From: Dehalococcoidia bacterium | Lineage (GTDB): Bacteria > Chloroflexota > Dehalococcoidia > UBA6926 | Reading direction: 5' to 3' | Length of the DNA: 64,000 bases | Assembly (NCBI GenBank): GCA_965207115.1 | Contig: CBDBLR010000003.1 | Coordinates: forward strand, 2,014-66,013 | Shown here: positions 22,461-61,975 of the stretch, piece after piece | How the letters are laid out: each line of letters starts with the position of its first letter | Numbering within the stretch: the stretch's first letter is position 1 | Made by a program: the position numbers and the translations under genes | The notes under the pieces: model-generated | The model's input: the letters and a program-made list of their open reading frames with translations, nothing else | Databases searched by the model: none | Told to the model about the DNA's origin: nothing

Positions 22461-22590
22461 CCTCGTTCACCCTGAGCCTGTCGAAGGGCCCCCACCCGTC
22501 ATTCCCGGCCTTACTCCCTAATTCCGGCGAGAGCCGGCATCCATGGATTCAGTCATTCAGAGCGCAGCAAGAGAACCCAAAGACGTGCCA
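22461..22590. repeat. composite REP-like element (modules B-A-A'-C)
   Basis: GTTCACCCTGAGCCTGTCGAAGGG + CGTCATTCCCGGCC + ATTCCGGCGAGAGCCGGCAT + GTCATTCAGAGCGCAGC; the same modules recur at about 11 other loci. Confidence 0.75.
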
Positions 22591-22712
22591 GATATCGGCA
22601 CGCTCTTCAGTATTTCCCAACGCAAACAAGGGATATTCACCGAGAAGAGACTTGGAACCAGACGAAAGGCTCAGTACAAGTCGTCGCCGGAGTACCGAAT
22701 AAGGCTTGGCGC

Positions 22713-24377
22713 TTATTGAGAGAGTCCTCCACCTAGCTCGCGGTGCATTCTGCGCAGAAAATCTACAATCTCGCGCAATCCTGACTCTGCTTCATCGACA
22801 CTGAGACGACTTGCCATTTCCTCGGCAAGTTCAGGCTTCCATGAATTCTTCGCGGCCTTTCGGCCAACGAGTTTCCTGATGGTCGATTCCACGCTAGAGT
22901 TCGACACAAGGTCATCTGAATTAAGCTCGACATCGTAAAGAGTTTCCACAGCCTTCTGCAAGGTATCCACCGGATAATGGTCTTCCAACGTCCCCCTGGC
23001 TAGTATCTGACAGTTTTCTGGCACGACATGACCCTTGTCAATTGCCTCCTGTGCCTCGACTTCGGCATCTTTATCTAGAATGAGGAACAAAGGTAGACCT
23101 GCTTCCCGACCTACTTCGGCCCAGAACTCAATCTTCCTTCTTCCTCGCGGGTATCCATTTGCTGAAATCACCTTGACGTGGCGCTCAGCAAGCGAGGCTC
23201 CAATCAGATCACTTATTCTACTGTAAAACAAGTTGTCTGAGAGGCCTTCAACCAGCAAAATGGCGTCACAGAATAGAATGTCGCTAGGCCTCATACCAAT
23301 GCCAAACAGTGTGTGCTGGAGGCCCGCGATATCGTCTAGCCGCTTAACTTTTGTTTCAGTTGACGGCTTGCTGACGGAATACAAACCCTTGAGTGGCGAG
23401 TATTCTACCAAGAATGGAGAGTGAGTAGCTATGAATAGCTGCTTGCCACTTTCGGCGATTTCTGTCAGATATTGCCCGACTTGCTTAATGAGACCAGGGT
23501 GCAAGTGTGTCTCCGGCTCCTCAATGACAATTAGCGGGCCACTGCTCTCAATTTGATCAACTAATTTGAGGGTATTCTGTGTGCCTTCGCCCGTCATGCC
23601 CAGCGAAACCGTTACGTCCCCTTCCTCCACCTGAATTGAGGAGTCTACTCCCACCAGTCTGTGGCCATTGGGAGTGAACCTTTCAAATTGTTGGCCCAAC
23701 TTCGTCCAGGGGCGGCGTTTCAGTCCCTTAGATTGGGACGAGATCCAGAGCTCCTGTGCCTGTTCGTCGTCGACTATGGTCGGACGTTCCCTAAATCGGT
23801 CAGACCAATCCGGGCGAGATTCGGAAGTCTGAACGACTGTTAGGCTGTACCTAAGGAGGTCTGAGAGTCGCTGAACCAGGTCAGCAATCGTGACTGAGAC
23901 CGAAATGTTGGATTCCACCAACAAAGCAGAGTCGATTTGACTATAGACCTCCTCTCCATTCCGTATGTAGTCGATGCCGTCAAATCTCAGACTATCTATC
24001 ACCCAAGTAATTGATGTACCCGCCAGATGGAAGCCCTTTTCTATGTAGACTTCCGGGCTGTAATCGAGTTGGAAAAGCTCGTCGTTGCCAAAGAGTTGCC
24101 CCCATTCATCCTCTGTTAGTGAAAGTGTGGCAGAAATGGTGGAAGGTGCGTCGACATAAGCATCATGTGCAGGGAAGAGGTGCTGGAACTCGTCGATTGC
24201 TCCCAATTCCCTTTCCATATCGGGGCCGAATTCAAGGAAGAGAAGAGACATGGCGTCAATAATATTTGACTTGCCCGAGCTATTCTTGCCAATGAAAACC
24301 GCGAGACCCGGTAACTCACGCAACTCAACGTCAATAAGGCTTGTGAAGTTGCGCACATGAAGAGTCTTGATTTTCAA
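22713..24377 (-). CDS. OLD-family (overcoming lysogenization defect) ABC-ATPase + TOPRIM nuclease, standalone (P2 Old / GajA-like); probable TTG start 24377 (alt GTG 24401)
   Basis: N-term KIKTLHVRNF…FIGKNSSGKSN (Walker A); LIVIEEPETHLHP (Walker B/D-loop); ATHSPFL (H-loop); TOPRIM LLVEGLSD … LILDKDAE. Gene GC ~48% vs ~64% flanks. SD AAGGAG before TTG. No adjacent UvrD-like helicase. Confidence 0.8.
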   Translation of the reverse strand: MKIKTLHVRNFTSLIDVELRELPGLAVFIGKNSSGKSNIIDAMSLLFLEFGPDMERELGAIDEFQHLFPAHDAYVDAPSTISATLSLTEDEWGQLFGNDELFQLDYSPEVYIEKGFHLAGTSITWVIDSLRFDGIDYIRNGEEVYSQIDSALLVESNISVSVTIADLVQRLSDLLRYSLTVVQTSESRPDWSDRFRERPTIVDDEQAQELWISSQSKGLKRRPWTKLGQQFERFTPNGHRLVGVDSSIQVEEGDVTVSLGMTGEGTQNTLKLVDQIESSGPLIVIEEPETHLHPGLIKQVGQYLTEIAESGKQLFIATHSPFLVEYSPLKGLYSVSKPSTETKVKRLDDIAGLQHTLFGIGMRPSDILFCDAILLVEGLSDNLFYSRISDLIGASLAERHVKVISANGYPRGRRKIEFWAEVGREAGLPLFLILDKDAEVEAQEAIDKGHVVPENCQILARGTLEDHYPVDTLQKAVETLYDVELNSDDLVSNSSVESTIRKLVGRKAAKNSWKPELAEEMASRLSVDEAESGLREIVDFLRRMHRELGGGLSQ

Positions 24378-24596
24378 CTTGGACAGTCTCCTTGCTCCCA
24401 CCCGCCTCTCATCTTACGATTGCCAGCATGCCTGATGACCATATCTTGTGTATTTTAGCTTATGTGTACGTATGTAGCAATCTAGAATCGCCCTTCTGCG
24501 TTGACAGGCATGGGGCAAGAATCACTTAGCTGGAATAGCGTACATTGGCAAGTTAGTCGTGAGTGAATTCAACAATCGACGGCCGCGCACTCCCCC

Positions 24597-25280
24597 TCAA
24601 ACCCTCTCTACTTGCCCAACCTCCACCCCTAACACCACGTCCAACACCTCTAGAATCAACTGCGTCGGCACACGGTCCCCGATATCCACCCCGACGTAAC
24701 CCCAGATCACACCGCCGTCCGGTTGGATGACGAACGTCGCGGGCGCGGCCACACCGTCCCCCAGCAGATTGAACACCCCGTAACTCTTCGACACGTCCTC
24801 GCTCGTGTCCGCCAGGATCGGAAACTCCGCCCCCGCCATCACCTCCATCCGCTCGGCATCGACCAATAAGTCCGTGCTGATCGCCGCGAGGCCGACGTTC
24901 CGGCTCTCAAACTCGTCGTAGAAACTCTGCAACTCGACCAGTTGCTGCTGGCAGATGCCTCAACCGTAGCTGCGATAGAAGACCACCACGAGCGCGTCGC
25001 GCCCCGCCAACAGATCATCCAGCGTATGCCTCTCGCCCGTGCCCGTCGAAAGCGAGAAATCCGGCGCTTGTGGCGCTTCGGGCTCCGGAATCTCTGTTGG
25101 AACCACGGTGGGCGAAGGCAGAGGCGTGTCCGTCGGGAACGGCGTCACAGTGGGTGAGGGCGCAAGAGTTGGAGCGGGTGTTGGAGTTTCCTCCGAGCAA
25201 CCCGCGACGAGGATGGCAATTGCCGCCAACATGGCTGTCAACAACAACAATTGGATGGGCACGAATCTACGGGTAATCAC
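24597..25280 (-). CDS. lipoprotein thioredoxin-fold redoxin (AhpC/TSA-TlpA-like) with in-frame TGA at catalytic Cys position: candidate selenoprotein (UxxC), alternatively pseudogene
   Basis: Track ORFs 24960..25280 and 24597..24932 are in frame (30 nt apart), separated only by TGA 24960-24962. Context …VVVFYRSYG-[TGA]-GICQQQLVEL… places the TGA exactly where redoxins carry the first Cys of CxxC. Stem-loop GCAAC-UGGUCGA-GUUGC begins 17 nt downstream. Confidence 0.5.
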
Positions 25281-25302: not shown

Positions 25303-25440
25303 GCTCACCCTGAGCTTGTCGAAGGGCGACCAATATTGTCATTCCGAGCGCAGCCGAGGAATCTAAAGCCGTAATTGGGAAGCCCTCCCGCTCACCCTGA
25401 GCTTGTCGAAGGGTTCCCCGCTCCGGGATTCAGACGCCTA
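25303..25440. repeat. composite REP-like element (B-C-B-A')
   Basis: Two copies of GCTCACCCTGAGCTTGTCGAAGGG flanking GTCATTCCGAGCGCAGCCGAGGAATCTAAAGCC. Confidence 0.75.
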
Positions 25441-27953: not shown

Positions 27954-30356
27954 CTACCTCAGCACTCCACTCTCTGTGCCCTCTTTGATCTCCTCGTCGG
28001 ACAAGCCGAGCACGCTCGTGAACACATACTCATTATCCTCACCAATCCATGGCGCGCGGTTTGCCGCAGTTGCCTTGGATAGCGAGGGAACGGCCGGTAG
28101 TCCGTGATGGGACAGCGTCCCCCACGTCGTGTGTGTCGACCGCACGATGTGTCCGCGCTCTCGCAGATGCGGATCGTTGTACAAGTCCTCGCTGTTCATC
28201 GCCACGCCCGCCGGCACCCCGACCTTCTGCAGCATGTGCAGAACCTGGTGAGACGTGAACGCCTTTGCCCACTCACTGATCTCGTGGTCGATTTCGTCGC
28301 GATTCGCCCGTCGCCCATCCCTGTCTGCGAATCGCGGGTCGTCCGCCCAGTGCGGCGCGCCCATCGCCTGTGCGAGAGCCCGCCACTGCTCGTCCGTCTC
28401 GCATGCAATGACGATCCATGTGTCCGGGTACCGGCACGCATACGCGCCGTAGGGGGCGTAATGGGCGGCAAGAGGCTCGTCATAGCCCACGCTGCCCCAA
28501 ATGTTCCCGTTGATCGTGTAGTCCAGGATGGCCGGGCCCATCATCGATCCCTGGCCGTCCACCTGCGCAATCTCGATGAACTGCCCCCGCCCGGTCACGT
28601 CGCGGTACTCAAGCGCGGCCGCCGTCGAAAGCGCAACGAACGCTGCTCCCACATAGTCCGGTATCACGCCCTTCGCGTGGTTCTGCATCGGCGAGTCCGG
28701 GTGCCCCCATAGCAGCGACAGCCCCGTCACCGCCTGCAGGTTGTTGCCATATGTCACCCAGTTGTTCAGTGGCCCGTCGGATCCCATCCCCGGCATCCCG
28801 ATCTGGATGATGCCCGGGTTGATCTTCGTCAGATCGTCGTAGCCCAGACCAAGCCGCTTCATGACCGTGGCGCTGAAGTTATCGACGACAACGTCACTGT
28901 CTTTAGCGAGCCGACGGAACAACTCCTTACCCTCATCCGAGCGCAGATCGACCGTGCAACTCAGCTTGTTGCGGTTCATGTCAGGGAACAGCGGGCGCGT
29001 CGGCTCACGGTTCGCCTCAAGGCTTGCAGACTCCACCTTGATGACCTCCGCGCCGTAGAATCCCAGGAACATCGTCCCGATGGGCCCCGCAAACGCCCGG
29101 GTGATGTCTGCCACGCGAATGCCGTCCAACAGGGCCGCATCCGGCGCCTTGCCGTTCGTCGGGGCAGGGTACGTCTCCCGCCTCGGTGAAACGGTCTCAA
29201 TCTCGGCAAGCACCTCGTCCCGATGCTGGTCCAGAAGAGGCGCAGGGCGAGTCTGGTTCCACGGCGTCGCCGACATGATGAACGGCTGCCCCGGCGTCTC
29301 GTACTCGCCGACGACAGGATGCGTTACCTTCTGGAACCACCCGCGCTGCCTCATATGGTCATCTGTTACAAAATCCTCGAACGTGTTGACCGGGCAGCAC
29401 GCGAGGCCACGCTTCTGCGCCTCCTCCACGAACTCATCGCGGTCGAACTGCTCGACAAACGACTGAATCAGTATCTGCGCGAGGTCCTCGTTGTCCGTTC
29501 GGTACTGGGACGAATCCCAGTCATCGTCGGACAGCACCGCGTCCTCCATCCACTGCCGGGACAGAACCCGCCAATGGCCGGTCATAAAGATCGCAATCTG
29601 GACGTACTTGTCATCCTTTGTTCGATAGATATTCGCAGGACCGCCGCGCGGCCCCTGCCGCGTCACGATCTCGCTCCGTTGGCTGTACCGCGCAATCGTG
29701 CCGACCGTTGCGAATGTCAGCGCCTCCTGCAGCGAAAGGTCGATGCGCTGCCCGCGCCCCGTCGCCCGCCGGTGCCGCACGGCGTTGATCGCCAGGTACG
29801 CTCCGTGCACAGCCGCAAGCTGCGATCCGATCTGGCACGGCAGCACGACTGGTGAGCGCTCATCGTCACCCTGGCTCATCATCACGCCGGACATGGCGGA
29901 GATGATTGCCTCATTGGCAGCAAAGTGGCTGAACGGCCCAGTCTGGCCGAACGGTGTCAGCGAGACCGTCACAAGCCCCGGATTAAGTGCCTCCAGCCGA
30001 TCGTCATCGATCCCCAGCGATGCCAACTGCCCGGGAGTTGTGCACTCCACAAAGACATCCGCGCGCTCGATGAGCTTCTCCAACGTCTCTCGACTGCCTG
30101 AGTCATCAATATCCAGCACGATGCTGCGACGATTCAGATTGGCGTTCAGGAACTTGATGCCGCGCTCCGGGTCTGCGATGTCCCCCGCGAAGGGCCCATG
30201 CATCCGATTCGGATCGCCCCCTGGCGGCTCAACCTTGATGACATCCGCGCCGAGCCCCGCGAGGAACCCCGCGCAATACGCCGCCGGAATCTCCCCAATC
30301 TCAACAACCCGCAAATGCCCCAGCGCCGAATCCCTATTCCCGTTAGTCATAGCCAT
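27954..30356 (-). CDS. fused double family-III CoA-transferase (two CaiB/BaiF domains), ~800 aa
   Basis: Two CaiB-like domains (…EIPAAYCAGFLAGLGADVIKVEPPGGD… and …DITRAFAGPIGTMFLGFYGAEVIKVES…). ATG 30356 follows GGGGAGA; the track's GTG 30365 is less likely. Confidence 0.7.
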   Translation of the reverse strand: MAMTNGNRDSALGHLRVVEIGEIPAAYCAGFLAGLGADVIKVEPPGGDPNRMHGPFAGDIADPERGIKFLNANLNRRSIVLDIDDSGSRETLEKLIERADVFVECTTPGQLASLGIDDDRLEALNPGLVTVSLTPFGQTGPFSHFAANEAIISAMSGVMMSQGDDERSPVVLPCQIGSQLAAVHGAYLAINAVRHRRATGRGQRIDLSLQEALTFATVGTIARYSQRSEIVTRQGPRGGPANIYRTKDDKYVQIAIFMTGHWRVLSRQWMEDAVLSDDDWDSSQYRTDNEDLAQILIQSFVEQFDRDEFVEEAQKRGLACCPVNTFEDFVTDDHMRQRGWFQKVTHPVVGEYETPGQPFIMSATPWNQTRPAPLLDQHRDEVLAEIETVSPRRETYPAPTNGKAPDAALLDGIRVADITRAFAGPIGTMFLGFYGAEVIKVESASLEANREPTRPLFPDMNRNKLSCTVDLRSDEGKELFRRLAKDSDVVVDNFSATVMKRLGLGYDDLTKINPGIIQIGMPGMGSDGPLNNWVTYGNNLQAVTGLSLLWGHPDSPMQNHAKGVIPDYVGAAFVALSTAAALEYRDVTGRGQFIEIAQVDGQGSMMGPAILDYTINGNIWGSVGYDEPLAAHYAPYGAYACRYPDTWIVIACETDEQWRALAQAMGAPHWADDPRFADRDGRRANRDEIDHEISEWAKAFTSHQVLHMLQKVGVPAGVAMNSEDLYNDPHLRERGHIVRSTHTTWGTLSHHGLPAVPSLSKATAANRAPWIGEDNEYVFTSVLGLSDEEIKEGTESGVLR

Positions 30357-30379
30357 TCTCCCCACCGATTAGGCGCATT

Positions 30380-30590
30380 CGTCATTCCCCCGAAAGCATG
30401 CCCCGTACTCCGATACGGGGCGGGAATCCAGAACACCCTCTCCCAATCTGCGAGTACGATAGGCGTCCCACCCTTGAAGGGTCAAGAACAAAACACCCCC
30501 GTTCGCCCTGAGCCTGTCGAAGGGCCACCACGCCCGTCATTCCCGGCCCCCCCCGTCATTCCCGCGCAGGCGAGAACCTGAATCACAATG
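30380..30590. repeat. composite REP-like element (A with nested 20-nt palindrome, B, A')
   Basis: CGTCATTCCC…CCCCGTACTCCGATACGGGG…CGGGAATCCAG; GTTCGCCCTGAGCCTGTCGAAGGG; CGTCATTCCCGGCC…GTCATTCCCGCGCAGGCG. Confidence 0.75.
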
Positions 30591-30688: not shown

Positions 30689-30955
30689 ATGAGCCTGAAC
30701 ATCAAGAACGAAGAAACCTGCCGACTCGCCGAAGAACTGGCGGCCCTAACCAAAGAAAACAAGACGCAGGCCATCACCATCGCCCTGCAAGAACGCCTTG
30801 AGCGGGTGACGGGCGAGCGCGAAAAGAGAATCGAGTGGGAAAAGAAGGCAATGCGAGCCGCTGCGGAGCGTATTGCGCCGCACTTGAAACCGGGGCCCTC
30901 CTCTACAGAGATCGGTGACTTTCTCTACGGTGGCGAATTTGGCGAACCGAAATGA
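30689..30955 (+). CDS. vapB: type II antitoxin (VapB/FitA-like)
   Basis: 88 aa, SD GAGGAA; 4-nt overlap (ATGA) with downstream PIN gene. Confidence 0.6.
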   Translation: MSLNIKNEETCRLAEELAALTKENKTQAITIALQERLERVTGEREKRIEWEKKAMRAAAERIAPHLKPGPSSTEIGDFLYGGEFGEPK

Positions 30956-31338
30956 TCATCGATTCATCTGCGATCTGTGCCATCCTCCTAAACGAATCTG
31001 ACGCCGACCACTACGAAGATGCAGTAATAGACGCTGATGTCCGCCGCATGTCTGCGGGGAGTCTTCTGGAAACTTCAATGGTCATCGAAGGCCGGGCCGG
31101 ACTGTCGGGCGGAGATGAGCTTGATGCGTTCATCGAGCGCCACACAATCGAAATCGTCCCCGTAACGCCTGAGCACGTCGCCGCCGCTCGACGCGCCTGG
31201 CGAGAATTCGGCAAAGGCAACCACCCCGCCGCCCTCAACCTCGGCGACTGCCTCGCCTACGCCCTCTCAGAAATGACCCAAGAACCCCTCCTCTACAAAG
31301 GCCAGGACTTCGGCCAGACGGATGTTCAGCCGGCCTAA
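30952..31338 (+). CDS. vapC: PIN-domain toxin VapC
   Basis: MIIDSSAI… (Asp4), …D…LLYKGQDF…; 128 aa. Confidence 0.8.
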   Translation: MIIDSSAICAILLNESDADHYEDAVIDADVRRMSAGSLLETSMVIEGRAGLSGGDELDAFIERHTIEIVPVTPEHVAAARRAWREFGKGNHPAALNLGDCLAYALSEMTQEPLLYKGQDFGQTDVQPA

Positions 31339-35134: not shown

Positions 35135-36292
35135 ATGACGAATGAAACGCAAAGCGTGAAAGAGGCTGAACAAGTGCCCGATTCGACATCACCCCAAACA
35201 CACTCCCGCCAGCGCCAACTCCTCGAAGAGCTGTCCAACGCCTTCGGCCCCACCGGCCACGAGGGCCCCGTCCGCGCCATCGTCCGGCGTGAGATGGATT
35301 CCCTTGCAGACTTTGTAGAAACCGACGGCATCGGCTCTCTCATCGCTCGCATCGGAGAGGAATCAGATGACGTTCCCCGCATCATGCTCTCCGGCCATAT
35401 GGATGAAGTGGGCCTCATGGTCCGCCAGATCACAGCCGAGGGCTACCTCACCATTCAGACCCTCGGCGGCTGGCTTGACCAGGCCCTGATAAACCAGCGA
35501 TGGGTCGTCATGACCCGCAACGGCCCCATCCCCGGCCTGACCGGCATCAAGACGCCGCACGTCATGCAGCCGGACGCCCGCAACCTGGTATTCAAGAAAG
35601 AGAGCATGTTTATCGATGTCGGCGCGGCAAACAAGGAGGACGCGGAAAAGCGACTCGGCATCCGCCCAGGCGACCCCATCGCACCCGACAGCCGCTTCCA
35701 GGAGATGGCGGGTGGCGAGCTCTACATCGGCAAGGCGTGGGATGACAGGGCAGGGGTGGCCGGACTCATTGAAGTTGCCCGAGCCCTGCGTGAATCAACA
35801 GATCCTCTCCCCGCAACCGTCTACCTTGTCGCCACTGTTCAGGAAGAAGTCGGCCTGCGCGGCGCACACACAAGCAGCTTCCACGTCATGCCGGACATCG
35901 GCATCAACCTTGAGTCCGGCGTCGCGGGAGACTACCCCGGCATCACCAAAGACGAGGCGCAGGAGGAGCTCGGTAAAGGCCCGACGGTCTTCCTCCATGA
36001 CAGCTCCATGCTGCCTAACCTGCGACTGCGTGATTTCTTTGTCGATACGGCCGCCGAACTCGAGATGCCGCTCCAATTCAACGTCCTCAGTGGCTACGGA
36101 GAAGACGGGGCGGAGATGCAGAAAGCAGGCTCCGGCGCCCCCTCCATCAACATCGCCGTCCCCACTCGCTACCTGCACAGCCACAACGGCGTTATCCACC
36201 GCGACGATTTTGCCAACGCCGTCCGCCTCGTTACAGAAGTCGTCCGCCGCCTCACCCCGGAAACCGTCTCGGCCCTGACCACCTTCGACTAA
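35135..36292 (+). CDS. M42-family (TET/FrvX-type) aminopeptidase; start ATG 35135 or GTG 35174
   Basis: …FGPTGHEGPVRAIV…SGHMDEVG…ATVQEEVGLRGA… M42 signature. The track start 35078 would overlap the divergent thrS start, so it is disfavoured. Confidence 0.8.
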   Translation: MTNETQSVKEAEQVPDSTSPQTHSRQRQLLEELSNAFGPTGHEGPVRAIVRREMDSLADFVETDGIGSLIARIGEESDDVPRIMLSGHMDEVGLMVRQITAEGYLTIQTLGGWLDQALINQRWVVMTRNGPIPGLTGIKTPHVMQPDARNLVFKKESMFIDVGAANKEDAEKRLGIRPGDPIAPDSRFQEMAGGELYIGKAWDDRAGVAGLIEVARALRESTDPLPATVYLVATVQEEVGLRGAHTSSFHVMPDIGINLESGVAGDYPGITKDEAQEELGKGPTVFLHDSSMLPNLRLRDFFVDTAAELEMPLQFNVLSGYGEDGAEMQKAGSGAPSINIAVPTRYLHSHNGVIHRDDFANAVRLVTEVVRRLTPETVSALTTFD

Positions 36293-36380
36293 TCCCTTTC
36301 CCAACCTCCCACGTAGACGTGGGGAGGCAAGCGCGTCGCGGACGTACCATTTATGATGAACGCAACTTGGCTACAGGAGT

Positions 36381-37856
36381 TTGGCAGTGCCTCTCATTCC
36401 CAAGGTGATGAGCACCCAGCACCCGGACAACGCTGCGGCACCTTCCTACGCCGTTGATGGAGTAATCAAGGGCGACGGCGAGATCATCGAGGCCGTCGAC
36501 GCCTTCAGTCTCGGCTGCGATGAGCAGATGTGGGACTCGGAAGGCAAGGACACCGATACTCACGTCGTTCAGAAACTTCTTAGCAATTACTCCGACTACT
36601 TCCGCGAAGAGCGCCGGTTGGGTCGCGACACCGTCATCACCCTGCGCGTCCCCAACCCCGCCATCGAGGTTGAGATGCGGAAACTGATGGTTGAGGCGCT
36701 GCAGGGCATCCCTACCGCCTTCGATGTGGCCCGTGAGTTCTATGGCGGTGACCTGGAGCCGCCCATTCAGGAGATCATTCTCCCCTTCACCACCTCCGCC
36801 GACGAACTCTCTCGCATTGCGGCTTACTACGAGAACTTCATAGTCGGACAAGAATCACGCACCCTCCTGGGCGACGTATCCGTTCGCGATTGGATAGGCG
36901 AGTTTCTCCCGAAACGCATTCGCGTTATCCCGCTCGTGGAATCGCGCGATCAGATGCTCCACGTCGATGACATCGTCCGCGAGTACCTGCGGGAGCGTGA
37001 GGAACCCTACCAGCGTGTCTTCCTGGCCCGCAGCGACCCCGCCCTGAACTACGGCATGGTTGGCGCGGAAATCCTGCTCAAGACCGCCCTCTACCGCGTT
37101 GATCGGCTCGCGCAGGAGACCGGCATTCCGATGTACCCAATTATTGGCGCCGGCTCCGTCCCGTTCCGTGGACACTTGAAACCCACCAACACCGCGCGAG
37201 CCTTCCGTGAGTACCCCAGCGTCCACACGCTCACCGTTCAGTCGGCATTCAAATTTGACTACCCCCGTGATGACGTGATGTCGGGCATCGCCCAGATCCA
37301 GACTCACGAGCAGACCCCTGCGCCGCCGATTGATGAACAACGCGCCATCGCCATCCTGGATAAGGCCGCCGCGGAGTACCAGAAGCAGGTGCGCAACCTT
37401 GCTCCGACAATCGCCACAGTCTCCGCGCTCTCCCCGCGGAGGCGAGAGCGCAAACTGCACGTAGGACTATTTGGCTACGGACGCTCACTCTCCGGCTCAG
37501 ACGACGTTACGCTGCCCCGCGCTATCGCTTTCGCCACTGCCCTCTATTCCATAGGCGTTCCGCCGGAATTGCTCGGACTCGCCGCCCTTGACCAGGAGGA
37601 TTTCGCCTACCTGCGAGAGATATACCCGAGCTTTGTAGAGGATCTGGCCACAGCGCTCCGCTACGCGAACGAGACACGCGTAAACCAATTGCTCGGCGAC
37701 AACTACCGGCGACTGCTCGTTCGATTCACGGAAGAGATCGACCGCATTCACGAAGGACTCACCACGGCGGTGTGGGCGAGCATTGAGCAGGGCGCAACAA
37801 CGCAAGTGTCGCACTACATCGCGGAAGCGGGAAAACTCCGGCGCTTCTTGGGTTAA
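36381..37856 (+). CDS. ppcA: archaeal-type phosphoenolpyruvate carboxylase (PpcA family)
   Basis: Hallmark N-terminal motif …IPKVMSTQHPDN…; ~490 aa as for PpcA, not the ~900-aa bacterial Ppc. Confidence 0.85.
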   Translation: MAVPLIPKVMSTQHPDNAAAPSYAVDGVIKGDGEIIEAVDAFSLGCDEQMWDSEGKDTDTHVVQKLLSNYSDYFREERRLGRDTVITLRVPNPAIEVEMRKLMVEALQGIPTAFDVAREFYGGDLEPPIQEIILPFTTSADELSRIAAYYENFIVGQESRTLLGDVSVRDWIGEFLPKRIRVIPLVESRDQMLHVDDIVREYLREREEPYQRVFLARSDPALNYGMVGAEILLKTALYRVDRLAQETGIPMYPIIGAGSVPFRGHLKPTNTARAFREYPSVHTLTVQSAFKFDYPRDDVMSGIAQIQTHEQTPAPPIDEQRAIAILDKAAAEYQKQVRNLAPTIATVSALSPRRRERKLHVGLFGYGRSLSGSDDVTLPRAIAFATALYSIGVPPELLGLAALDQEDFAYLREIYPSFVEDLATALRYANETRVNQLLGDNYRRLLVRFTEEIDRIHEGLTTAVWASIEQGATTQVSHYIAEAGKLRRFLG

Positions 37857-37879
37857 AGGCATGAAGTACAATCTCCATT

Positions 37880-37915
37880 CCGTCATTCCGAGCGCAGTCG
37901 AGGAATCTGTGACCC
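37880..37915. repeat. REP-like element type C directly after PEPC stop
   Basis: CCGTCATTCCGAGCGCAGTCGAGGAATCTGTGACCC. Confidence 0.7.
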
Positions 37916-38200
37916 TGATTGACTAACGGCGCCGGAACGCGGCCCCGCAACCTCACAGGGCGCCCAACGATAGTCGCGAACCGAGAAAAAACTTGACACT
38001 TTGCCCTATTCGGCGCATAGTGAGATTCGGTATCCGGTTCGGTGATTTTATCCCTGAACCATGCTGTACCAGACGTTCCCCATAGACCCGTTGCGACACT
38101 CCTTTAAGGGTGTGTGTATGCGTGGAATGACGGATGGAGAACGAAGCAGGCGTGAATCGCCCCCCGAGATGATCCGGCGGGGCAGGCCATATGGGGATGC

Positions 38201-39961: not shown

Positions 39962-40042
39962 CACACACGAACAGCCCCTTCCTTTTAAGCAAGTGAAGCA
40001 AATCACAATCCACAACCAAAACGGCGAGCAAACATAGCGAAT

Positions 40043-40165
40043 AAGGCGTCGATAACCAGCACTAACGAGCAGACACAGAGAAAAAGGCGTCGATAACCAA
40101 CGCTAACGAGCAAACAGAGAGAAAAAGGCGTCGACGACCAATACTGACGAGCAAACAAAGTAACA
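40043..40165 (+). repeat. 3 x 41-nt tandem direct repeats in the rho 5' leader
   Basis: AAGGCGTCGATAACCAGCACTAACGAGCAGACACAGAGAAA / …CCAACGCTAACGAGCAAACAGAGAGAAA / …GACGACCAATACTGACGAGCAAACAAAGTAACAAAA; period 41 nt; A/C-rich. Confidence 0.85.
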
Positions 40166-40209
40166 AAAGCCCGGGCATCGTCACATCGCCCGCAGCAAAG
40201 GAGACTTAC

Positions 40210-42090
40210 GTGGACACCACAGACACCCCCAACCCCGACGAGCCGCAGCGCCCCGTCACACGGCGCGGCATCGCCCGACCGCCGCGCACCCGCCGCGCCT
40301 CAGCCGCCGCAACGACGGAAGCACCCCCGGAGGAAAACTCCGCCGAGGAAGCCGTGACCGAAAACGGCGCGACCCCCGCCGCTCACCCTGAACCTGTCGA
40401 AGGGACCACCGAAAACGGCGCAACTCCGGTCGAAACTGCGGACAACGGCACGACCCCCGCCGAAGCGCCCACGGAAAACGGCGCAGCCGCTCCGGATGCC
40501 CCCTCCCCATCACCGAGGAGGAGTCGAAGTGCGAGTGAAGCCTCCTCCATCACGGACGGCCTTCCACCCGCCACCATGACTACCACCACCGCGGAACCCA
40601 TTGAAGACATCGAAGAAGAAGCGCCACCCCGACGCGCGCCACGCCCACGTCCCTCCAACGGTGCAGGGCAGCGGCGACGCGAGCGACCGGACCGCGGTGA
40701 CCGCCCTAACCGGGCGCCCCGCGATGGCGGCGGCCCACGCCCACCTGCCAACGCTGACGACGGTGATTCTGACTCCCAACAGCGTGAGCCGCGTGTTTCT
40801 GACCTGCCGGAGCCGCTTCAGCAGGTCACCATCCCGCAGCTTGAGGCCCTTGATCGTGACGAGGCCGGCCGCCTCGCTGAATTCCTCAACATGCCCCCCG
40901 GCGCCGCCGTCCGACGTGATGAGATGGTCCATCGCGCCATCCAGACCCTCGGCGAGCGCGGCGGAACAATCACCGCCAGCGGCATCCTTGAGATCACCAA
41001 CGACGGCTACGGCTTCATCCGACACCGCACCCTCCGCCACAACATCAACGATGTCTACGTCGCGCAGTCGCAGATCCGCCGATTCAGCCTTCGCACCGGT
41101 GATTGGGTAACAGGGCAGGTCCGCTCACCCAAGAGCGGGGAGAAATACTACGGCCTCCTCCGCGTTGACACCGTCACCGGCCAGGAGCCGGAGATCTCTC
41201 GCCGCCGCCCCGTCTTTGACCAACTCACAGCACTCTTCCCGGATCGACTCTATGACCTGGAGACGAATCAAAAGGCCATCGCCGCCCGCCTGCTCAACCT
41301 CGTCGCCCCCATCGGCTTCGGACAGCGAGCCTTGATCGTCTCCCCCCCCAAGGCCGGCAAGACCATCCTTCTCCACCAGATCGCAGACGCCATCACCTCC
41401 CAGTACCCCTCCACCCACATCATGGCCGCCCTCATCGGTGAGCGACCGGAAGAAGTCACGGACTGGGAGCGCACCGTTAAAGGTGCAGAAGTCATGGCCT
41501 CCACCTTTGACGAGCCCGTTGAAGAACACACCCGCGTTGCAGAGCTCGTCCTCGCCCGCGCCAAGAGACTCGTTGAAGCCGGGCAAGACGTCGTCATCCT
41601 CCTTGACTCCATCACTCGACTCGCCCGCGCCTACAACATCGCCGCCCCTTCCAGTGGGCGCACACTCTCCGGCGGCATGGATCCCGTCGCCCTCTACCCC
41701 CCCAAGCACTTCTTCGGCGCAGCGCGCAACACAGAAGAGTCCGGCACCCTCACCATCGTCGCCACCTGCCTTGTCGACACCGGCTCCCGGCTTGACGATG
41801 TCATCTACGAAGAATTCAAAGGCACCGGCAACATGGAGGTCCACCTCGATCGCAAACTCGCCGAGCGCCGCATCTACCCCGCCATTGACGTCCTCAAGTC
41901 CGGCACACGACGTGACGAGCGACTCTACGACGAAAAGTCCTACCGCGGCATCGTCACCCTCCGCCGCATGATGGCCATGCTCTCCAACTCCAACCTTGAC
42001 GCATCCGATGCCACAGAGCGCATCCTTGACCGCATCTCAAAGACCAAGACCAACGCCGACTTTATCGCCACACTCTCCCGTGAAATCTAA
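40210..42090 (+). CDS. rho: transcription termination factor Rho with ~200-aa disordered N-terminal extension (GTG start)
   Basis: RNA-binding (…GDWVTGQVR…) and ATPase motifs (…PKAGKTILL…, Q- and R-loops); SD AAAGGAG 6 nt before GTG. Confidence 0.9.
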
Positions 42091-42361: not shown

Positions 42362-42733
42362 CACGTTCAAGTGACTACGCCTAGCGTTAGGCGTGGGGCT
42401 TTCCGTGTACTGCATGCACACGCGCGGGAAACCCCTGCATAGCGTGGCGCAGTCGGGATAAAGAGACAGGGAACAGGAGAGCGCGGGGCTCTCTAAGACT
42501 ATGGAGACTGACCGGACAAAGCAGGAAGCGCGGGAAAGTCAGCGCCTCCGGCCGCAACAAGCGGCTAACGGGAGGCTCTCCTGACACCCACGGATGGGGA
42601 GGAGCACATGCACTCACAAGAACCCTGGCAATCGCGAAGCCCAACGGGCAGCGTGAATAAACCGTTGATTTCCTCTACACTTATGAAGACGGGCCGCAGA
42701 GGCCCAAATCACAGTTACGGAAGGGGGCTTCCT

Positions 42734-46813: not shown

Positions 46814-46871
46814 AACCCCGATACCATGGAGGGGCCTGCCAACCGGCAGCCCCTCCCTAGCGGAAACAAAA

Positions 46872-46907
46872 GAGGCCCCGGGCAAACCGCCCGGGGCCTC
46901 TCCCGTT
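46872..46907 (+). terminator. terminator-like hairpin after surface-protein gene
   Basis: GAGGCCCCGGG-CAAACCG-CCCGGGGCCTC perfect 11-bp stem; weak T-tract (CTCCCGTT). Confidence 0.45.
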
Positions 46908-46920
46908 AAGGGCGAGTGGG

Positions 46921-46975
46921 CATCGTCATTCCCGCCCCCCTTCCGTCATTCCCGTGAAAACGGGAATCCAGTACG
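46921..46975. repeat. REP-like element type A (left flank of GIY-YIG gene)
   Basis: CGTCATTCCCGCCCCCCTTCCGTCATTCCCGTGAAAACGGGAATCCAG. Confidence 0.8.
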
Positions 46976-47017
46976 GCGCGGCAGCGCCGTCCCCGTTCCG
47001 TCTACAATCAAAGAGCA

Positions 47018-47332
47018 ATGACCAACCCCCGTCCCCGCAAAAGGCCCCTGGATCCGTGCGTCTACATCATGGCGAGTGACCGAAATGGGACCATCTACAC
47101 CGGCGTCACATCCAACCTTGTGCAGCGCGTCTGGCAGCACAAGACAAACCGGAATCAGGCCTTCACAAAGAAATATGAAATCCACCACCTCGTCTGGTAC
47201 GAGCAGCATGCAACCATGCTCTCCGCTATCGCGCGCGAGAAGGCGATCAAGAAATGGAACCGCCGCTGGAAACTGGAACTCATTGAGAGCCTCAACCCGG
47301 ACTGGCAAGACCTATACAAAGACATCGCCTAA
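47018..47332 (+). CDS. GIY-YIG nuclease-family small protein (104 aa)
   Basis: …CVYIMASDRNGTIYTGVTSNLVQRVWQHK… GIY-YIG core. Confidence 0.8.
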   Translation: MTNPRPRKRPLDPCVYIMASDRNGTIYTGVTSNLVQRVWQHKTNRNQAFTKKYEIHHLVWYEQHATMLSAIAREKAIKKWNRRWKLELIESLNPDWQDLYKDIA

Positions 47333-47350
47333 CCTCCCCCACAACCCCCC

Positions 47351-47400
47351 CCCGTCATTCCCGCCCCCCTCCGTCATTCCCGTGAAAACGGGAATCCAGT
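47351..47400. repeat. REP-like element type A (right flank of GIY-YIG gene), near-identical to 46921-46975
   Basis: CCGTCATTCCCGCCCCCCTCCGTCATTCCCGTGAAAACGGGAATCCAG, followed by a GCCGCCC-GCA-GGGCGGC hairpin. Confidence 0.8.
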
Positions 47401-47444
47401 GCCGCCCGCAGGGCGGCCTCTCCCCCCTCTGCTACCCTTAACCC

Positions 47445-48434
47445 ATGGAAGACCTCGTCACCCGCCTACTCGACGGCAACCTCAATGCCGCCCCACGCAT
47501 CCTCACGCTCCTCGAGAAGGGCGACCCCCAGGCCGATGACATCATGCAGCGCATTGCCGCCCACCTAAATTCCCCTCATTCCGGCGAAAGCCGGAATCCA
47601 TCGGGCCGTCCCCCCGCCCACCGCATCGGCATCACAGGCCCCCCCGGCGCGGGCAAAAGCACCCTCGTCGAGGCCATGACTGCCGAGCTCCGCAAGCAGG
47701 ACCTCACCGTCGGCGTCCTCGTCGTCGATCCCTCAAGCCCCTTCACCGGCGGCGCGATCCTCGGCGACCGCGTCCGCATGAGAGACCACTTCCTGGACCC
47801 CGGCGTCTTCATCCGCAGCATGGCCACACGCGGCGCGTCCGGCGGCCTCTCCGCCATCGCCCCCTCCGCAATGCGCGTCCTGGACGCCGCGGGCCTGGAC
47901 GTCATCATCGTGGAGACCGCGGGCGTCGGCCAGACGGAACTGGACATCATGCACACCGTCGATAGCGTCGTGGTCGTCGTGGTGCCGGAGGCGGGCGACG
48001 CAATTCAGACCATGAAGGCCGGACTGCTGGAGATCGCCGATGTCTTCGTCGTCAACAAAGCCGACCGCCCCGGCGCCAAGCGCATGGCCAACGACCTCGA
48101 GACCACCGTTCACCTGGGCAGCCGTGACATGGACTGGTGGACGATTCCCGTCCTCCAGACCGAGGGGATCCGCAACAAGGGCGTCACGGAGCTCGTGGAG
48201 GCCGTAGGACGGCATCACGAGACGCTGCGCGACGCAGGACGCCTCGAAGCCCGCCGAGCCGAGCAGAGACGCTCAGAATTTCACGCAGCCCTCAGAGAGC
48301 GCCTCCTGGACCGCCTGACCCGCGCCGAACACTCGGACGCCCTCGCGGAGATCCTCCACCAGGTAGAAACGGGCCAACTCCCCCCAATAACCGCCGCCAC
48401 CCACGTCCTGGCCAACCCGGACCTACTCCGCTAA
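47445..48434 (+). CDS. meaB: MeaB/ArgK-family G3E GTPase (methylmalonyl-CoA mutase-associated), carrying an in-frame REP-like insertion
   Basis: GITGPPGAGKST (P-loop), VLVVDPSSPFTGGAILGDRVRM, VVNKADR. A repeat at 47573-47604 encodes the extra loop …HSGESRNPSG… just before the P-loop. Confidence 0.85.
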   Translation: MEDLVTRLLDGNLNAAPRILTLLEKGDPQADDIMQRIAAHLNSPHSGESRNPSGRPPAHRIGITGPPGAGKSTLVEAMTAELRKQDLTVGVLVVDPSSPFTGGAILGDRVRMRDHFLDPGVFIRSMATRGASGGLSAIAPSAMRVLDAAGLDVIIVETAGVGQTELDIMHTVDSVVVVVVPEAGDAIQTMKAGLLEIADVFVVNKADRPGAKRMANDLETTVHLGSRDMDWWTIPVLQTEGIRNKGVTELVEAVGRHHETLRDAGRLEARRAEQRRSEFHAALRERLLDRLTRAEHSDALAEILHQVETGQLPPITAATHVLANPDLLR

Positions 48435-48447
48435 AGGGCGGGCGGGC

Positions 48448-48497
48448 ACCGTCATTCCGGCGCAGGCCGGAATCCATCGCCTGGCCCGCAGGCCAGA
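48448..48497. repeat. REP-like element type A after meaB stop
   Basis: CCGTCATTCCGGCGCAGGCCGGAATCCATCGCCTGGCCCGCAGGCCAG. Confidence 0.75.
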
Positions 48498-48504
48498 ACT
48501 CGGG

Positions 48505-49740
48505 TCATTGCGCCCTTAGCGCGGCCCCCACCCCCAAGAACCGCCCAATATCCCCAACCTCACCCCGCACCTCATCCCAAATAGACCCCAGCGCCCCCTC
48601 CATCCCCGGAAACGCCTCAACCGAGATCTCAAGCCGTTCGTCATTCCCGCGCCCCTGTCCGTCATTCCCGCGAAGGCGTGAACCTCTCACCCATCTCCAC
48701 GACCACGTCGCCACCGCAAGCCCATCGATAGTCACAACAGGCCGGATCATCCCCCCGCCCGCATTCACCCGGGACATATACTCCGGCGCAACCGCCAACC
48801 CCCGCCCCCGATACCCCAGCAAATAAGTATCAAAAAACCCCAACAACCTCACCAGCCCACCGTCATTCCCGCGCCCCTCTCTGTCATTCTGAGCGGAGCG
48901 CAGCGCAGTCGAAGAATCTAAAGCCTCATTGACCCAACCAACCCCCGTAACGCCGTCCACCACCCACATCCGCTCCCCCTCAACCCCAACCTCCACCAAC
49001 TCACCCGAGATCGCCCCAAACCCCGCCCGTGCGTCCCGCAGCGGCAGCCCCGACCACACAGCGAAGTCTCGCTCCGTCGAGGGCCCAAACGCCCTGATAT
49101 ACCGCCCCGCCAGCCGAGCGAGCCCCTCATCGCGCGAGAGCTCCGGCCGCTCGATCCCCGCCAGCCATGAATCCGCCGCCACAAAAGTCTCCGTCTTGCC
49201 GTCCAGCAGCGGCCCGTGCGCGATGACCCCCAAAAACCCCCCGGCCCGCACAACATGATGCAGAGCCTGGTTTGCAACAGGGATATCGTAAGTAGCCAGA
49301 CGCTCCGCTAACTGCTGTCGTGTCAGCGGCCCCTCATTACTTAGGACATCGACCGAGTGCTTAAGCGCCTCGTCCAATGTCGCGTCATCAAGACCGAGTT
49401 GGTGTCGCCTTCCGCGTCCGGCTGAAAAGGAGGATGCTCCTAGCAGAGCAGTCATCCATCTGTGATCTTCTGCAGGAATCAGATGAAGAGTCCCCCTCAT
49501 CGCCCACGTGCGAACGATGGAACGATCCTGTGAGAGTGCCTGTATGACGTCAGTGGATGTAAGCCCGGAGCTTCTTACGCGAACCTGCAAAGGCGCAGTA
49601 TTCATATCCTGCGCTTGTATACCGCCTGTGCCCCGCACAGTTTCCAATACCGCGCCCGCGCCGCCAATGGGAACATCAAGCCCCTGCGAAGATACGCGGA
49701 GACGCCGAGTGTTATCGGCAGAGAGTGCAATAGTGGACAT
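48505..49740 (-). CDS. winged-helix YcaQ/AlkZ-like protein (putative DNA glycosylase family) with two in-frame REP-like insertions
   Basis: ~400-aa family size and N-terminal pattern. Repeats at 48635-48693 and 48858-48925 are translated in-frame as …GRGNDGG… / …RLRGNDGQGRGNDER…. Confidence 0.5.
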   Translation of the reverse strand: MSTIALSADNTRRLRVSSQGLDVPIGGAGAVLETVRGTGGIQAQDMNTAPLQVRVRSSGLTSTDVIQALSQDRSIVRTWAMRGTLHLIPAEDHRWMTALLGASSFSAGRGRRHQLGLDDATLDEALKHSVDVLSNEGPLTRQQLAERLATYDIPVANQALHHVVRAGGFLGVIAHGPLLDGKTETFVAADSWLAGIERPELSRDEGLARLAGRYIRAFGPSTERDFAVWSGLPLRDARAGFGAISGELVEVGVEGERMWVVDGVTGVGWVNEALDSSTALRSAQNDREGRGNDGGLVRLLGFFDTYLLGYRGRGLAVAPEYMSRVNAGGGMIRPVVTIDGLAVATWSWRWVRGSRLRGNDGQGRGNDERLEISVEAFPGMEGALGSIWDEVRGEVGDIGRFLGVGAALRAQ

Positions 49741-49808
49741 AGGAGAAACGTAGGCGCGCTTAGCGGTTCGAAGTCGACCCGGGTATCTGAAACTGTCCCG
49801 ACTTCAAC

Positions 49809-50384
49809 TCACGTTCCTTCACTAGCGTGGGAAGCTAACTCAAACAGCTTCTGAACAGTGCGCCAGTTTCGTGTGGTAGTCACTGTCGAAAGCCTGGAAT
49901 CGAAGTAGCTATTCGTGAGCTTGGTATTCGCAAACCCATTCGGACAGTGAAGATAGATTTCACGACCCAACACCGCAAACTCGTCGCCCGGAGATCGATC
50001 TTGGTCAAGTGACTCAACTTGGTCACCAGTCGGTAGTTCCTCCAGGAAAACAACATGCAGCTTGTCGGCTTCCGCACCGGCTTGCATGAAAGGGTTCGCT
50101 CGTACGATGTTTTTGAACTCTTCGGCAGTCCGGGTCAATACGGGGATTTGATAGCCGAATCTATCCAGAATCAAGGCGCTAATGAGAGAAGGAATGTCTG
50201 GTCTCACCGTGTGCGCCGCCTCAAAGAGCACGTTCCCACTCTGAATATAGGTTCGAACATCACTGCAACCGGCCTCCACGAACATTGCCGTGAGTTCCTT
50301 CATGGGCAGCCTGTTCTTGCCACCCACGTTTATACCGCGAAGCAAAGCCACATTAGTGCTGGACGCCACGTTAGCCTTGTCCAT
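49809..50384 (-). CDS. DUF1697 domain protein
   Basis: …VALLRGINVGGKNRLPMKELTAMF… conserved N-terminus; locally lower GC (~50%). Confidence 0.65.
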   Translation of the reverse strand: MDKANVASSTNVALLRGINVGGKNRLPMKELTAMFVEAGCSDVRTYIQSGNVLFEAAHTVRPDIPSLISALILDRFGYQIPVLTRTAEEFKNIVRANPFMQAGAEADKLHVVFLEELPTGDQVESLDQDRSPGDEFAVLGREIYLHCPNGFANTKLTNSYFDSRLSTVTTTRNWRTVQKLFELASHASEGT

Positions 50385-57332: not shown

Positions 57333-57368
57333 CCCTCCGTCATTTCCGCGAAAGCGGGAATCCAGAAG
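57333..57368. repeat. REP-like element type A after CoA-transferase stop
   Basis: CCGTCATTTCCGCGAAAGCGGGAATCCAGAAGC. Confidence 0.75.
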
Positions 57369-59902: not shown

Positions 59903-60811
59903 TTATTCTTCCGACCGGCGCTGGAACCTGTCCCGCAACAGGATCGCCGTCGCGTTCATGGTCAGCAGCACAAGCAGCAGGATGATGATTGCCGCCGCTG
60001 TCACGTGCTGCCAGTCCAGCTGCGGGCGTGACACCCAGTTGAAGATCTGAATCGGAAGCACTGTGAATCGCTCGAACGGATGCCCGGGCGTGAACGTAAC
60101 GAAGACGAGTCCGGAGATGGCGAGCAGCGGCGCCGCCTCACCGATTGCGCGTGACATCGCAAGAATCGTTCCAGTCAAAATCCCTGGCAGAGCGGACGGC
60201 AGAATCACGTGCCTCACCGTCTGCCAGCGCGTTGCTCCCAGCGCCAGCGAACCCTGTCGATAGCTGTCAGGTACTGCCCGGATGGCCTCGCGTCCCGCCA
60301 CGATCAAGAGCGGCAGTACTAGGAGTGTCAGCGTCAGCGCGCCAGCCAGAATGACCCGGTCAAGGTTCAGTAGGAAAACAAAGACGGCCAAACCCAGCAG
60401 CCCGTACACGATGGACGGCACGCCTGCCAGGTTTGAGATATTCAACTCGATAAACTGCGTCAGCCGGTTGCGGGGCGCGTATTCCTCAAGATAGATCGCC
60501 GTCGCCGTTCCGATGGGGAACGTGAACAGCGCCGTCAGGCCTCCGACCCACAGCGTCCCGAATAAGGCGGAGCGCAATCCGGCGTCCGGCGGTCGGCGTG
60601 AAGGATACGTCGACAGGAAATCCCAGTCGATCCATGCAAGCCCGTCAATGAGAACATCGATGATGAGCGCCGCTAACGTCGCAAGGCCCACGAGCGTCGA
60701 CCCAAGGAACAGCATGACCGCCGCATTACCAATAAGGCGGCGTCCGCGCAGGCTTCGGTGAAATTGCTCAGCACTGACGCTGCGAACACCGTTGGGAGTC
60801 GTTGATTCCAT
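59903..60811 (-). CDS. pstA: phosphate ABC transporter permease PstA
   Basis: 6-TM permease with EAA-like loop; operon position. Confidence 0.85.
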
Positions 60812-60823
60812 GATCCTGCGCCC

Positions 60824-61819
60824 CTAATACGCCTGCCGCCAGCGCCGAACCACCAAGTGGCCAAGGACGTTCATGGCGAGCGTCATCACGAATAGCAGCA
60901 GCGCCACCGCGAATATCGTGTAGTAGATCGTCGTCCCCTGAGGGGTCTCGCCGAATCCCACCTGCACGATGTAGGCCGTCATCGTTTGGATGCTCTCTCG
61001 CGGATCAATCGTGAGACGAGGAGTCGCGCCCGCTGCTATGGTCACCAGCATCGTCTCGCCGATGGCCCGTGAAAGCCCGAGGATTATTGCGGCCACGATG
61101 CCGGATAGCGCCGCCGGCGTTACCACCCGCGTCGCCACCTCAAACCGTGTTGCCCCCAGCGCATACGCCGCCTCACGCAGTGAGCGAGGGACGGCCAGCA
61201 TCGCATCCTCCGACAAGGAAGACACTATTGGGATAATCATCACGCCCATCACCAGCCCCGCGCTCAACGCGTTGAAGATGATCATGTCCGGGAACAGAAA
61301 CGTCTGTAGAAGGGGAGTCACGAAAGTCAACGCGAAATAGCCGTAAACGACCGTCGGAATGCCTGCCAGGATCTCGAGCATCGGCTTCACGACGCGCCGA
61401 AGCCGGTTCGGCGCATACTCACTCAGGAAGATAGCCGTGAACAGTCCCACTGGCGCCGCTACCAGGATTGCAATTGCCGCCACAAGAACCGTTCCTGCGA
61501 CAAGTGGCAGCACGCCGAACAGCGAGGGCTGGAATCGCGGAGTCCACACGGTACCCGTAAGGAATTCGATAACCGAGACGTCCTGGAAGAACCGGAAGCT
61601 CTCATTTACCAGGACGAAGACAATTCCTAGGGTCGTGGCGATCGAGACAACCGTGGCCGCGAGAAGCAACATGTGGATCAGGGTCTCGGTACCGCGCTCA
61701 GCCCGTTTGCCGGACAGTAGGCGTTTCTCCAGGTTCTCCTTTGAAACGCGAGACGCGGAAAATGACGCTTCAGCCAAAAATGTGATCCTTCCCCAATTGC
61801 CCCTAAAGCCCCCGCACAC
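60824..61819 (-). CDS. pstC: phosphate ABC transporter permease PstC
   Basis: Permease core; operon position. Confidence 0.85.
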
Positions 61820-61975
61820 AAGAATGCCCGATGTAGATTAAGTGAGGGTTAAGAAGCCTCGTCATTCCCGCTAAGGATGGTATCCATCGCGTACCCCCTC
61901 TTTCTGCGGGAAAAGGTTAGTGCTTGCCCAGTACTTGCTTCGGGGGTGGGGGCAGCTCGTCAAAGGCTACTCCGG

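Follow-up and report, generated by a model that had tools for sequence, protein, structure and literature searches.

Introduction

The hairpin repeat known in Neisseria as NTS is bound by SsnA, a 94-amino acid, single-domain nuclease of the GIY-YIG family, only when the DNA is single-stranded. The enzyme nicks a single strand, a few bases 5' of the hairpin; in Neisseria cleavage is governed by the three bases ahead of the stem, and copies of the motif typically stand on both sides of the ssnA gene (Chenal et al. 2025, PMC11893778). The same kind of repeat has been classified as CGTC-1 among the REP (repetitive extragenic palindromic) elements, where it corresponds to dRS3 of Neisseria and to RPE-6 of Rickettsia (RPE, Rickettsia palindromic element) (Di Nocera et al. 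2013, PMC3733652). Among the CGTC REPs head-to-head dimers predominate, no associated enzyme gene was found and Chloroflexi were not among the listed hosts (PMC3733652). Here we describe three palindromic repeat modules (A, B and C) that occur between and within the genes of a 64,000-nucleotide stretch of contig CBDBLR010000003.1 from a Dehalococcoidia bacterium (GCA_965207115.1; positions 2,014 to 66,013, hereafter "the window").

The results make it quite probable that the modules are the cognate single-stranded DNA (ssDNA) hairpin sites of small, single-domain GIY-YIG nucleases, A and C belonging to an SsnA-type and B to a UPF0213-type enzyme, and that the nuclease cassettes are gained and lost at the hairpins. 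For the most part this is the known and already explained system of Ssn nucleases and their hairpin sites (SRM, Ssn-related motif), now seen in a new host. One extension is probably new, the pairing of module B with a UPF0213-type protein.

Results and discussion

Three repeat modules

Motif matching located the modules at all 13 loci at which they had been noticed in the initial annotation. With up to three mismatches allowed, module A had four matches in the window (an exact one at 42145 and others at 46944, 47372 and 57338; none expected, 100 shuffles). Seven matches were obtained with module B (22465, 25303, 25390, 30501, 40381, 42097 and 42183), and two exact matches (25338 and 37882) plus a long-loop variant at 48883 with module C; none of either was expected in dinucleotide shuffles. 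An unbiased repeat search of the window recovered the same families (D9, D10, D13 and D20). Module A has the layout CGTC-ATTCCCGC-GAAA-GCGGGAAT-CCAG. When folded as ssDNA, module A (z = -3.7, -9 kcal/mol) and the full form of module B (z = -3.8) gave stable hairpins. The earlier description of the repeats as GNRA-loop hairpins does not hold for GCAG, which is not a GNRA loop. Scans of the window detected no Rfam family at the gathering score and no tRNA.

The repeats had been regarded as a genome-specific family of REP- or RPE-like palindromes. The second part of this description was correct, module A having the exact CGTC-1 REP architecture. The first was not: module A has the very sequence of the Neisseria NTS consensus, and all three modules recur in other phyla. 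The names given to the neighbouring genes (archaeal-type phosphoenolpyruvate (PEP) carboxylase, pyrG, rho, MeaB, AlkZ-like, CoA-transferase family III) were right.

Modules A and C accompany an SsnA-type nuclease gene

The copy of module A at 42145-42172 is the exact NTS consensus, CGTCATTCCCGCGMAVGCGGGAATCYRG, and the copies at 46944, 47372 and 57338 differ from it by one or two bases. The published degenerate SRM pattern matched the window eight times, always on the + strand, compared with 0.71 matches expected on both strands in dinucleotide shuffles. Six of the eight are the repeats, and two are probably chance matches. The pattern was not matched by module B or by the CTC-tagged copy that lies in meaB.

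The initial annotation overlooked the gene at 47018-47332, the sole SsnA-type GIY-YIG gene of the window, which is flanked by SRMs 47 nucleotides (nt) upstream and 40 nt downstream (Table 1). Its 104-amino acid product is 58% identical (tblastn, E 4e-29) to a 94-amino acid open reading frame (ORF) of N. gonorrhoeae that lies amid NTS repeats. The gene was assigned to ssnA on the basis of a tblastn E value below 1e-10 combined with a flanking motif. Its presence shifts the interpretation of the repeats from an RNA element to an ssDNA site recognized by a protein. No solved structure of an Ssn protein was found; a structure search gave weak matches to UPF0213 and spurious ones to WD40.

The association extends far beyond this lineage. 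The search yielded 2174 ssnA homologues, about 60-70% identical across phyla. Among 63 homologue loci from Dehalococcoidia, Beta- and Gammaproteobacteria, Thermodesulfobacteriota, Planctomycetes and others, a full hairpin was present within 150 nt of the gene in 58, and on both sides of it in 41. Between genomes the stems of the flanking hairpins co-vary. The nearest ssnA loci, like the pyrG homologues, came from Chloroflexota or Dehalococcoidia.

Module C shares with module A the tag, the outer stem and the C that follows the stem, and in one locus (L045) a C-type hairpin stands on both sides of an ssnA homologue. For these reasons we read module C as a variant SRM whose partner would be the SsnA-type nuclease, despite its failure to match the published pattern and its weak fold.

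The gene bracketed by the repeats also bears on whether these might be classical REP or REPIN elements mobilized by a RAYT tyrosine transposase. The small size, hairpin shape, mosaic arrays and intragenic copies are all as in GTAG REPs. However, the tag is CGTC and not GTAG, the literature reports no RAYT adjoining CGTC REPs, and the bracketed gene encodes a GIY-YIG nuclease (no search aimed at RAYT was made in the window). We consider mobilization by a RAYT very improbable.

The repeats had initially been given a terminator or mRNA-stability role, inferred from their position immediately after stop codons. That they are RNA-level elements, kept as intrinsic terminators or 3' stabilizers to end or protect transcripts, appears quite unlikely. 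Modules A and B do form stable stems, enterobacterial REPs are described as able to stabilize mRNA, and seven of the ten intergenic loci lie 3' of at least one stop codon. The remaining three are 5' of genes, and four loci are within genes. The position after stop codons thus holds for part of the set and fails at 25303-25440 and 30380-30590, which lie 5' of - strand gene starts in divergent regions, and at 61855-61895. No copy is followed by a T-tract, the tails being CCAG or CCAT, and a terminator scan of 36000-50000 reported none of the repeats (10 found, 11.5 expected in shuffles). In a close relative (L132, see below) a classical GC hairpin with a T-run stands beside the SRM, and it would be this structure that does the terminating. 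In addition, all copies are on one DNA strand regardless of gene direction, and copies are present or absent between near-identical relatives. These data do not support a terminator role.

Module B accompanies a UPF0213-type nuclease gene

In L132, whose pyrG is 96% identical to that of the window, there is no ssnA in the syntenic block. Instead, a 98-amino acid GIY-YIG gene ("type-2") is located between meaB and alkZ, with three tandem B hairpins upstream and more copies of module B downstream. The type-2 protein is of the UPF0213 type (matches to PDB 1zg2, E 7e-18, and 1ywl, E 1e-14) and only distantly related to the SsnA-type proteins. Its family (2914 matches, about 60% identity across phyla, many on very short contigs) has the same signature as the ssnA family.

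The module B core, GAGCYYGTCGAAGG, was found within 250 nt of a type-2 gene in all five independent loci: L132, L134 (Qipengyuania), L137 (Syntrophaceae), L140 and L142. Its density was 5.0 per kb in the flanks of type-2 genes versus 0.0022 per kb, a single match, in 452 kb of ssnA loci. There was no match in 840 kb of gonococcal DNA. This control was NZ_CP119140.1 (PLSDB; loci L115-L131), a 2.17-Mb sequence that is labelled as an N. gonorrhoeae plasmid and is evidently the chromosome. The 11-nt loop of module B is kept across phyla while the stems vary, which suggests that the module is recognized in a sequence-specific manner. Judged from these sequence associations, module B is probably the site of a second GIY-YIG family, the UPF0213 type.

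The alternative is that module B has no nuclease partner and is a passive spacer repeat, comparable to the RS elements of the Neisseria mosaic arrays, that collects in repeat-rich intergenic DNA. All B copies of the window are interleaved with A or C, the window has no type-2 gene, and the Neisseria arrays do hold many unrelated RS families. Against this, the core adjoins the type-2 gene in five of five loci from unrelated taxa, in most of them without A and C nearby, and the near absence of the core around ssnA genes and the loop conserved over varying stems also speak against it. We regard a passive module B as unlikely.

Two further observations concern the type-2 genes. L140 and L141 encode an identical type-2 protein, and the B hairpin just 5' of the gene (1459-1491 in L140) has the opposite orientation in L141 at exactly the same position. 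In two viral contigs (L143 and L144) more distant UPF0213-type genes are flanked by other, well-known repeats (CTCACCATGAGG or LTMR type), which suggests that many nuclease-hairpin pairs exist.

No paper that links UPF0213/YhbQ proteins to a repeat, or gives the family a function, was found in the open-access literature. If the link with module B holds, this very large, uncharacterized family gains a testable function, a second ubiquitous repeat is explained, and enzymes of new specificity become available for the ssDNA-cutting toolbox opened by the work on Ssn.

Filled and empty sites

The positions of the nuclease genes differ among related loci. Both the window and L001 have ssnA between meaB and a gene for a 1401-amino acid protein; L002 has it upstream of the large gene, and L132 and L133 lack it. 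At the place occupied in the window by half-site, SRM, ssnA, half-site and SRM, L132 has a single SRM and the same downstream flank, so that the two form a filled and an empty site. The meaB/alkZ intergenic site at 48448-48497 of the window holds the type-2 cassette in L132. Repeats without a gene behave similarly: the 111-nt mosaic after rho and module C after ppcA (37880-37915) are both absent at the same places in L001. Comparison of these sequences shows gain and loss of nuclease cassettes at hairpins, a kind of evidence that had been lacking and that this lineage adds.

Copies within genes

The copies reported in frame in meaB and in the alkZ-like gene are indeed insertions: orthologues lack the residues. 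The L002 orthologue of MeaB, 90% identical, is without exactly the 14 residues LNSPHSGESRNPSG. They fall in the stretch preceding the P-loop, whose length varies among the solved MeaB structures. In the alkZ-like gene the site at 48635-48693 is empty in L002 and carries an intact CTC-type SRM in L001; the site at 48858-48925 carries module C alone in L002 and a half-site plus a CTC-type SRM in L001. The L002 AlkZ-like protein has an insertion derived from module B, LRQAQGD, elsewhere in its sequence. The rho gene contains a module B in frame at 40381-40404, where L001 rho has a seven-amino acid gap; near this empty site L001 rho carries an SRM-encoded segment, SPHSGESRNPS. Gene insertion sites are thus re-used with different modules in different relatives, evidence for which had also been lacking.

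The full hairpins in genes (47574-47601 in the window; 3546, 10730, 11997 and 12234 in L001) all have a CTC tag, a ATTCCGGC stem and a CCAT tail. The intergenic ones are mostly GTC-tagged. Because the tag bases govern cleavage in Neisseria, the intragenic CTC-tagged copies may, by analogy, be non-cleavable.

Knowledge of the hairpins is of use in annotation. They account for odd peptide insertions and for N- or C-terminal extensions in Dehalococcoidia proteins, and recognizing them averts spurious ORF calls; in many spurious ORFs the translated module B hairpin appears as PFDKLRxNG or LRQAQGE.

Strand orientation and half-sites

A feature absent from the initial annotation is that every repeat copy of the window is on the + strand, whatever the direction of the genes. 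The core GTCATTCC occurs 19 times on + and once on -, module B seven times and module C three times on + only. For 14 loci to be all on one strand p is about 1e-4. The lone - strand core match (38124-38131) is in the leader 5' of pyrG, is conserved base for base in L001, and is probably not a repeat copy. Counts of full hairpins on the two strands were 6:0 in the window, 14:0 in L001, 6:0 in L132 and 1:0 in L133; L002 has two in forward and four genuine ones in reverse orientation. Inverted (head-to-head) pairs, the rule in other genomes, were not found in the window or in L001. A metagenome scan with a tail motif supposed to be specific to the lineage returned another organism, in which the hairpins are inverted dimers. 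This strong strand asymmetry is a further point that the present lineage adds to the picture.

A replication-strand rule, by which the cleavable strand is kept off the lagging-strand template, was considered and rejected. In the window the + strand has an excess of C whichever way the genes run (-0.087 and -0.103), which fits such a rule, but L002 has its four reversed copies at the same sign of skew. Among the other loci with a net orientation 17 were consistent and 24 inconsistent with the rule, and in the 840 kb of N. gonorrhoeae DNA, sampled around the chromosome, orientation was unrelated to skew (15:10 vs 4:3).

Some full hairpins are preceded on their 5' side by half-sites, which are tandem repeats of the tag and 5' arm (GTCATTCCCGC and a spacer of 8-10 nt) in one to four copies with a period of about 19-27 nt. 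Such arrays were present at 65 of 328 hairpins, compared with 16-18 for each of three control arrangements, and occurred in many phyla. They look like the footprint of a directional process.

A model and the points against it

By homology with the Neisseria enzyme, the SsnA-type protein of the window would bind the folded A or C hairpin only as ssDNA. Binding would depend on the sequence together with the tag and tail (GTC ... C), and cleavage would be a nick in just one of the strands, a few bases 5' of the hairpin. Module B would be recognized by the UPF0213-type nuclease. A nuclease gene and its flanking hairpins would constitute a cassette resembling an insertion sequence, gained or lost at existing hairpins. 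Solo hairpins and mosaics would accumulate in intergenic DNA and also, because module A is open in five of its six reading frames, as in-frame insertions in tolerant loops or disordered segments, as in meaB, the alkZ-like gene and rho. We infer the cleavage of ssDNA by these proteins from their homology; how the hairpins would be copied, and what benefit they may bring to the host, are matters of inference as well.

Several observations weigh against the model. Module C falls outside the published SRM pattern and, by nearest-neighbor rules, has no stable fold (z = +0.27). The ssnA gene of the window is flanked by direct repeats, those of other genomes usually by inverted ones. The only enzymes tested biochemically are those of Neisseria and Wolbachia, neither of which belongs to this lineage (PMC11893778). 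For module B the pairing is based on a small sample of five loci, and the window itself has no type-2 gene. Recombination between hairpins, instead of nuclease-driven transposition, could have given rise to the filled and empty sites. Finally, the model predicts neither the orientation of all copies on one strand nor the half-site arrays 5' of the hairpins.

In a more far-reaching version, module B is the site of a second, so far uncharacterized family of site-specific ssDNA nucleases (UPF0213/YhbQ-type), both cassettes are active mobile elements that hop between hairpins, solo hairpins are repeatedly written in frame, and the half-site arrays and one-strand orientation are the footprints of directional, ssDNA-based copying. 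This we hold tentatively, as an appreciable possibility.

Features of the window

Table 1. Repeat copies and nuclease gene of the window, with half-site positions in the window and in other loci.
Feature	Position	Strand	Details
ssnA homologue, gene for 104-amino acid single-domain GIY-YIG nuclease	47018..47332	+	Pfam GIY-YIG, E 1.4e-15
ssnA upstream bracket	46921..46995	+	half-site 46925, canonical SRM 46944-46971, second GC hairpin 46973-46990
ssnA downstream bracket, direct orientation	47351..47420	+	half-site 47354, SRM 47372-47399, second GC hairpin
Mosaic 3' of rho stop codon	42096..42211	+	B, half-site, exact NTS 42145-42172, full B hairpin 42183-42211
meaB in-frame 42-nt insertion, LNSPHSGESRNPSG	47565..47606	+	CTC-tagged SRM 47574-47601, just ahead of P-loop
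alkZ-like (- strand gene) in-frame insertion 1	48635..48693	repeat on +	half-site and decayed SRM, encodes RGNDGQGRGNDER
alkZ-like in-frame insertion 2	48858..48925	+	half-site and long-loop module C
Module B in frame, disordered rho N-terminus (AAHPEPVEG)	40381..40404	+	module B match; absent from the list of the initial annotation
SRM (CGTC-ATTCCGGC-GCAG-GCCGGAAT-CCAT) and GC hairpin, between convergent meaB and alkZ	48448..48497	+	
Solo SRM between convergent CoA-transferase and PhoU genes	57333..57368	+	
Mosaic 5' of - strand CoA-transferase start	30380..30590	+	interrupted SRM 30380-30432, B 30501, half-site 30536, decayed SRM 30554
B - C - B mosaic, divergent intergenic region	25303..25413	+	
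Mosaic between convergent DUF1801 and OLD-like genes	22461..22590	+	B, half-site, variant SRM, decayed C
Solo module C after PEP carboxylase stop codon	37880..37915	+	
Decayed SRM 5' of - strand pst permease gene, antisense to gene	61855..61895	+	
Half-sites in the window	42126, 46925, 47354, 30536, 48640, 48862, 22498		
Half-sites in other loci	L003, L010, L015, L024, L034, L035, L037, L054, L057		

Some repeat loci contain additional structures. Directly 3' of several SRMs stands a small GC-rich hairpin whose loop is GCA or GGCA (46973-46990, 47400-47417 and 48480-48497). The stems of these second hairpins differ among copies yet remain complementary, and the pairing of SRM and second hairpin is also seen in L001 and L002. 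At 30380-30432 a nested, 24-nt GC-rich hairpin (CCCCGTAC...GTACGGGG type) splits the SRM between the loop and the 3' arm.

Among the neighboring genes, an OLD-like AAA/TOPRIM gene (22713-24401, - strand) and a PIN toxin gene (30952-31338, + strand) are next to repeat loci. The adjacent - strand ORFs 24597-24932 and 24960-25280 resemble a single lipoprotein-type AhpC/TSA thioredoxin-fold gene interrupted by a frameshift or stop, which is either a pseudogene or a sequencing error. The 803-amino acid CoA-transferase (27954-30365, - strand) consists of two fused family III domains; identity among the CoA-transferase paralogues is no higher than 27-30%.

Positions 1-22000 hold no recognizable repeat copy. 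The GC content is higher there (0.62-0.69 over the first 16 kb), the GC skew stays close to zero or is positive over about the first 12 kb, and a 2054-amino acid ORF at 6060-12224 contains tandem domain repeats of about 312-339 nt. This part may be an acquired island.

Comparison with known systems

The closest relative of the elements described here is the NTS/SRM-SsnA system of Neisseria (PMC11893778). The two have in common the consensus, NTS being module A, a homologous gene, the NTS-ssnA-NTS layout, and hairpins that are enriched and oriented. They differ in the host, here a Dehalococcoidia-like member of the Chloroflexota, in the flanks of the gene, which are direct instead of inverted, and in the confinement of the copies to one strand. 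About four of the 14 loci are inside genes, compared with the 2% reported for N. meningitidis (PMC11893778), and the hairpins can be far denser: there are 14 full ones in 20 kb of L001, whereas the 840 kb of gonococcal DNA contain 32 NTS.

The CGTC-1 REPs (PMC3733652) have the same unpaired CGTC tag, 8-bp stem starting with AT, 4-nt loop and CCA tail, and CCTC and TGTC tag variants and intragenic units are likewise known among them. Unlike those elements, the copies described here are co-oriented and an enzyme gene is adjacent. The Rickettsia palindromic elements resemble the present ones in being inserted in frame into coding genes with the ORF left intact and in being absent from orthologues, as is the case with meaB, the alkZ-like gene and rho. 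However, the classical RPE-1 measures about 100-150 bp, the units here are of 27-45 nt or form mosaics, and the present host is not intracellular.

With the REP/BIME-RAYT systems (REPtrons, REPINs) there is a likeness of organization: a single nuclease or transposase gene bracketed by hairpins that are recognized as ssDNA, and many solo copies. The fold is GIY-YIG and not HUH-Y1, the tag is CGTC and not GTAG, and no transposition chemistry has been demonstrated for Ssn. For the protein beside module B the relevant known group is the UPF0213/YhbQ-type GIY-YIG proteins (PDB 1zg2 and 1ywl), of which the type-2 protein is, by sequence, a member.

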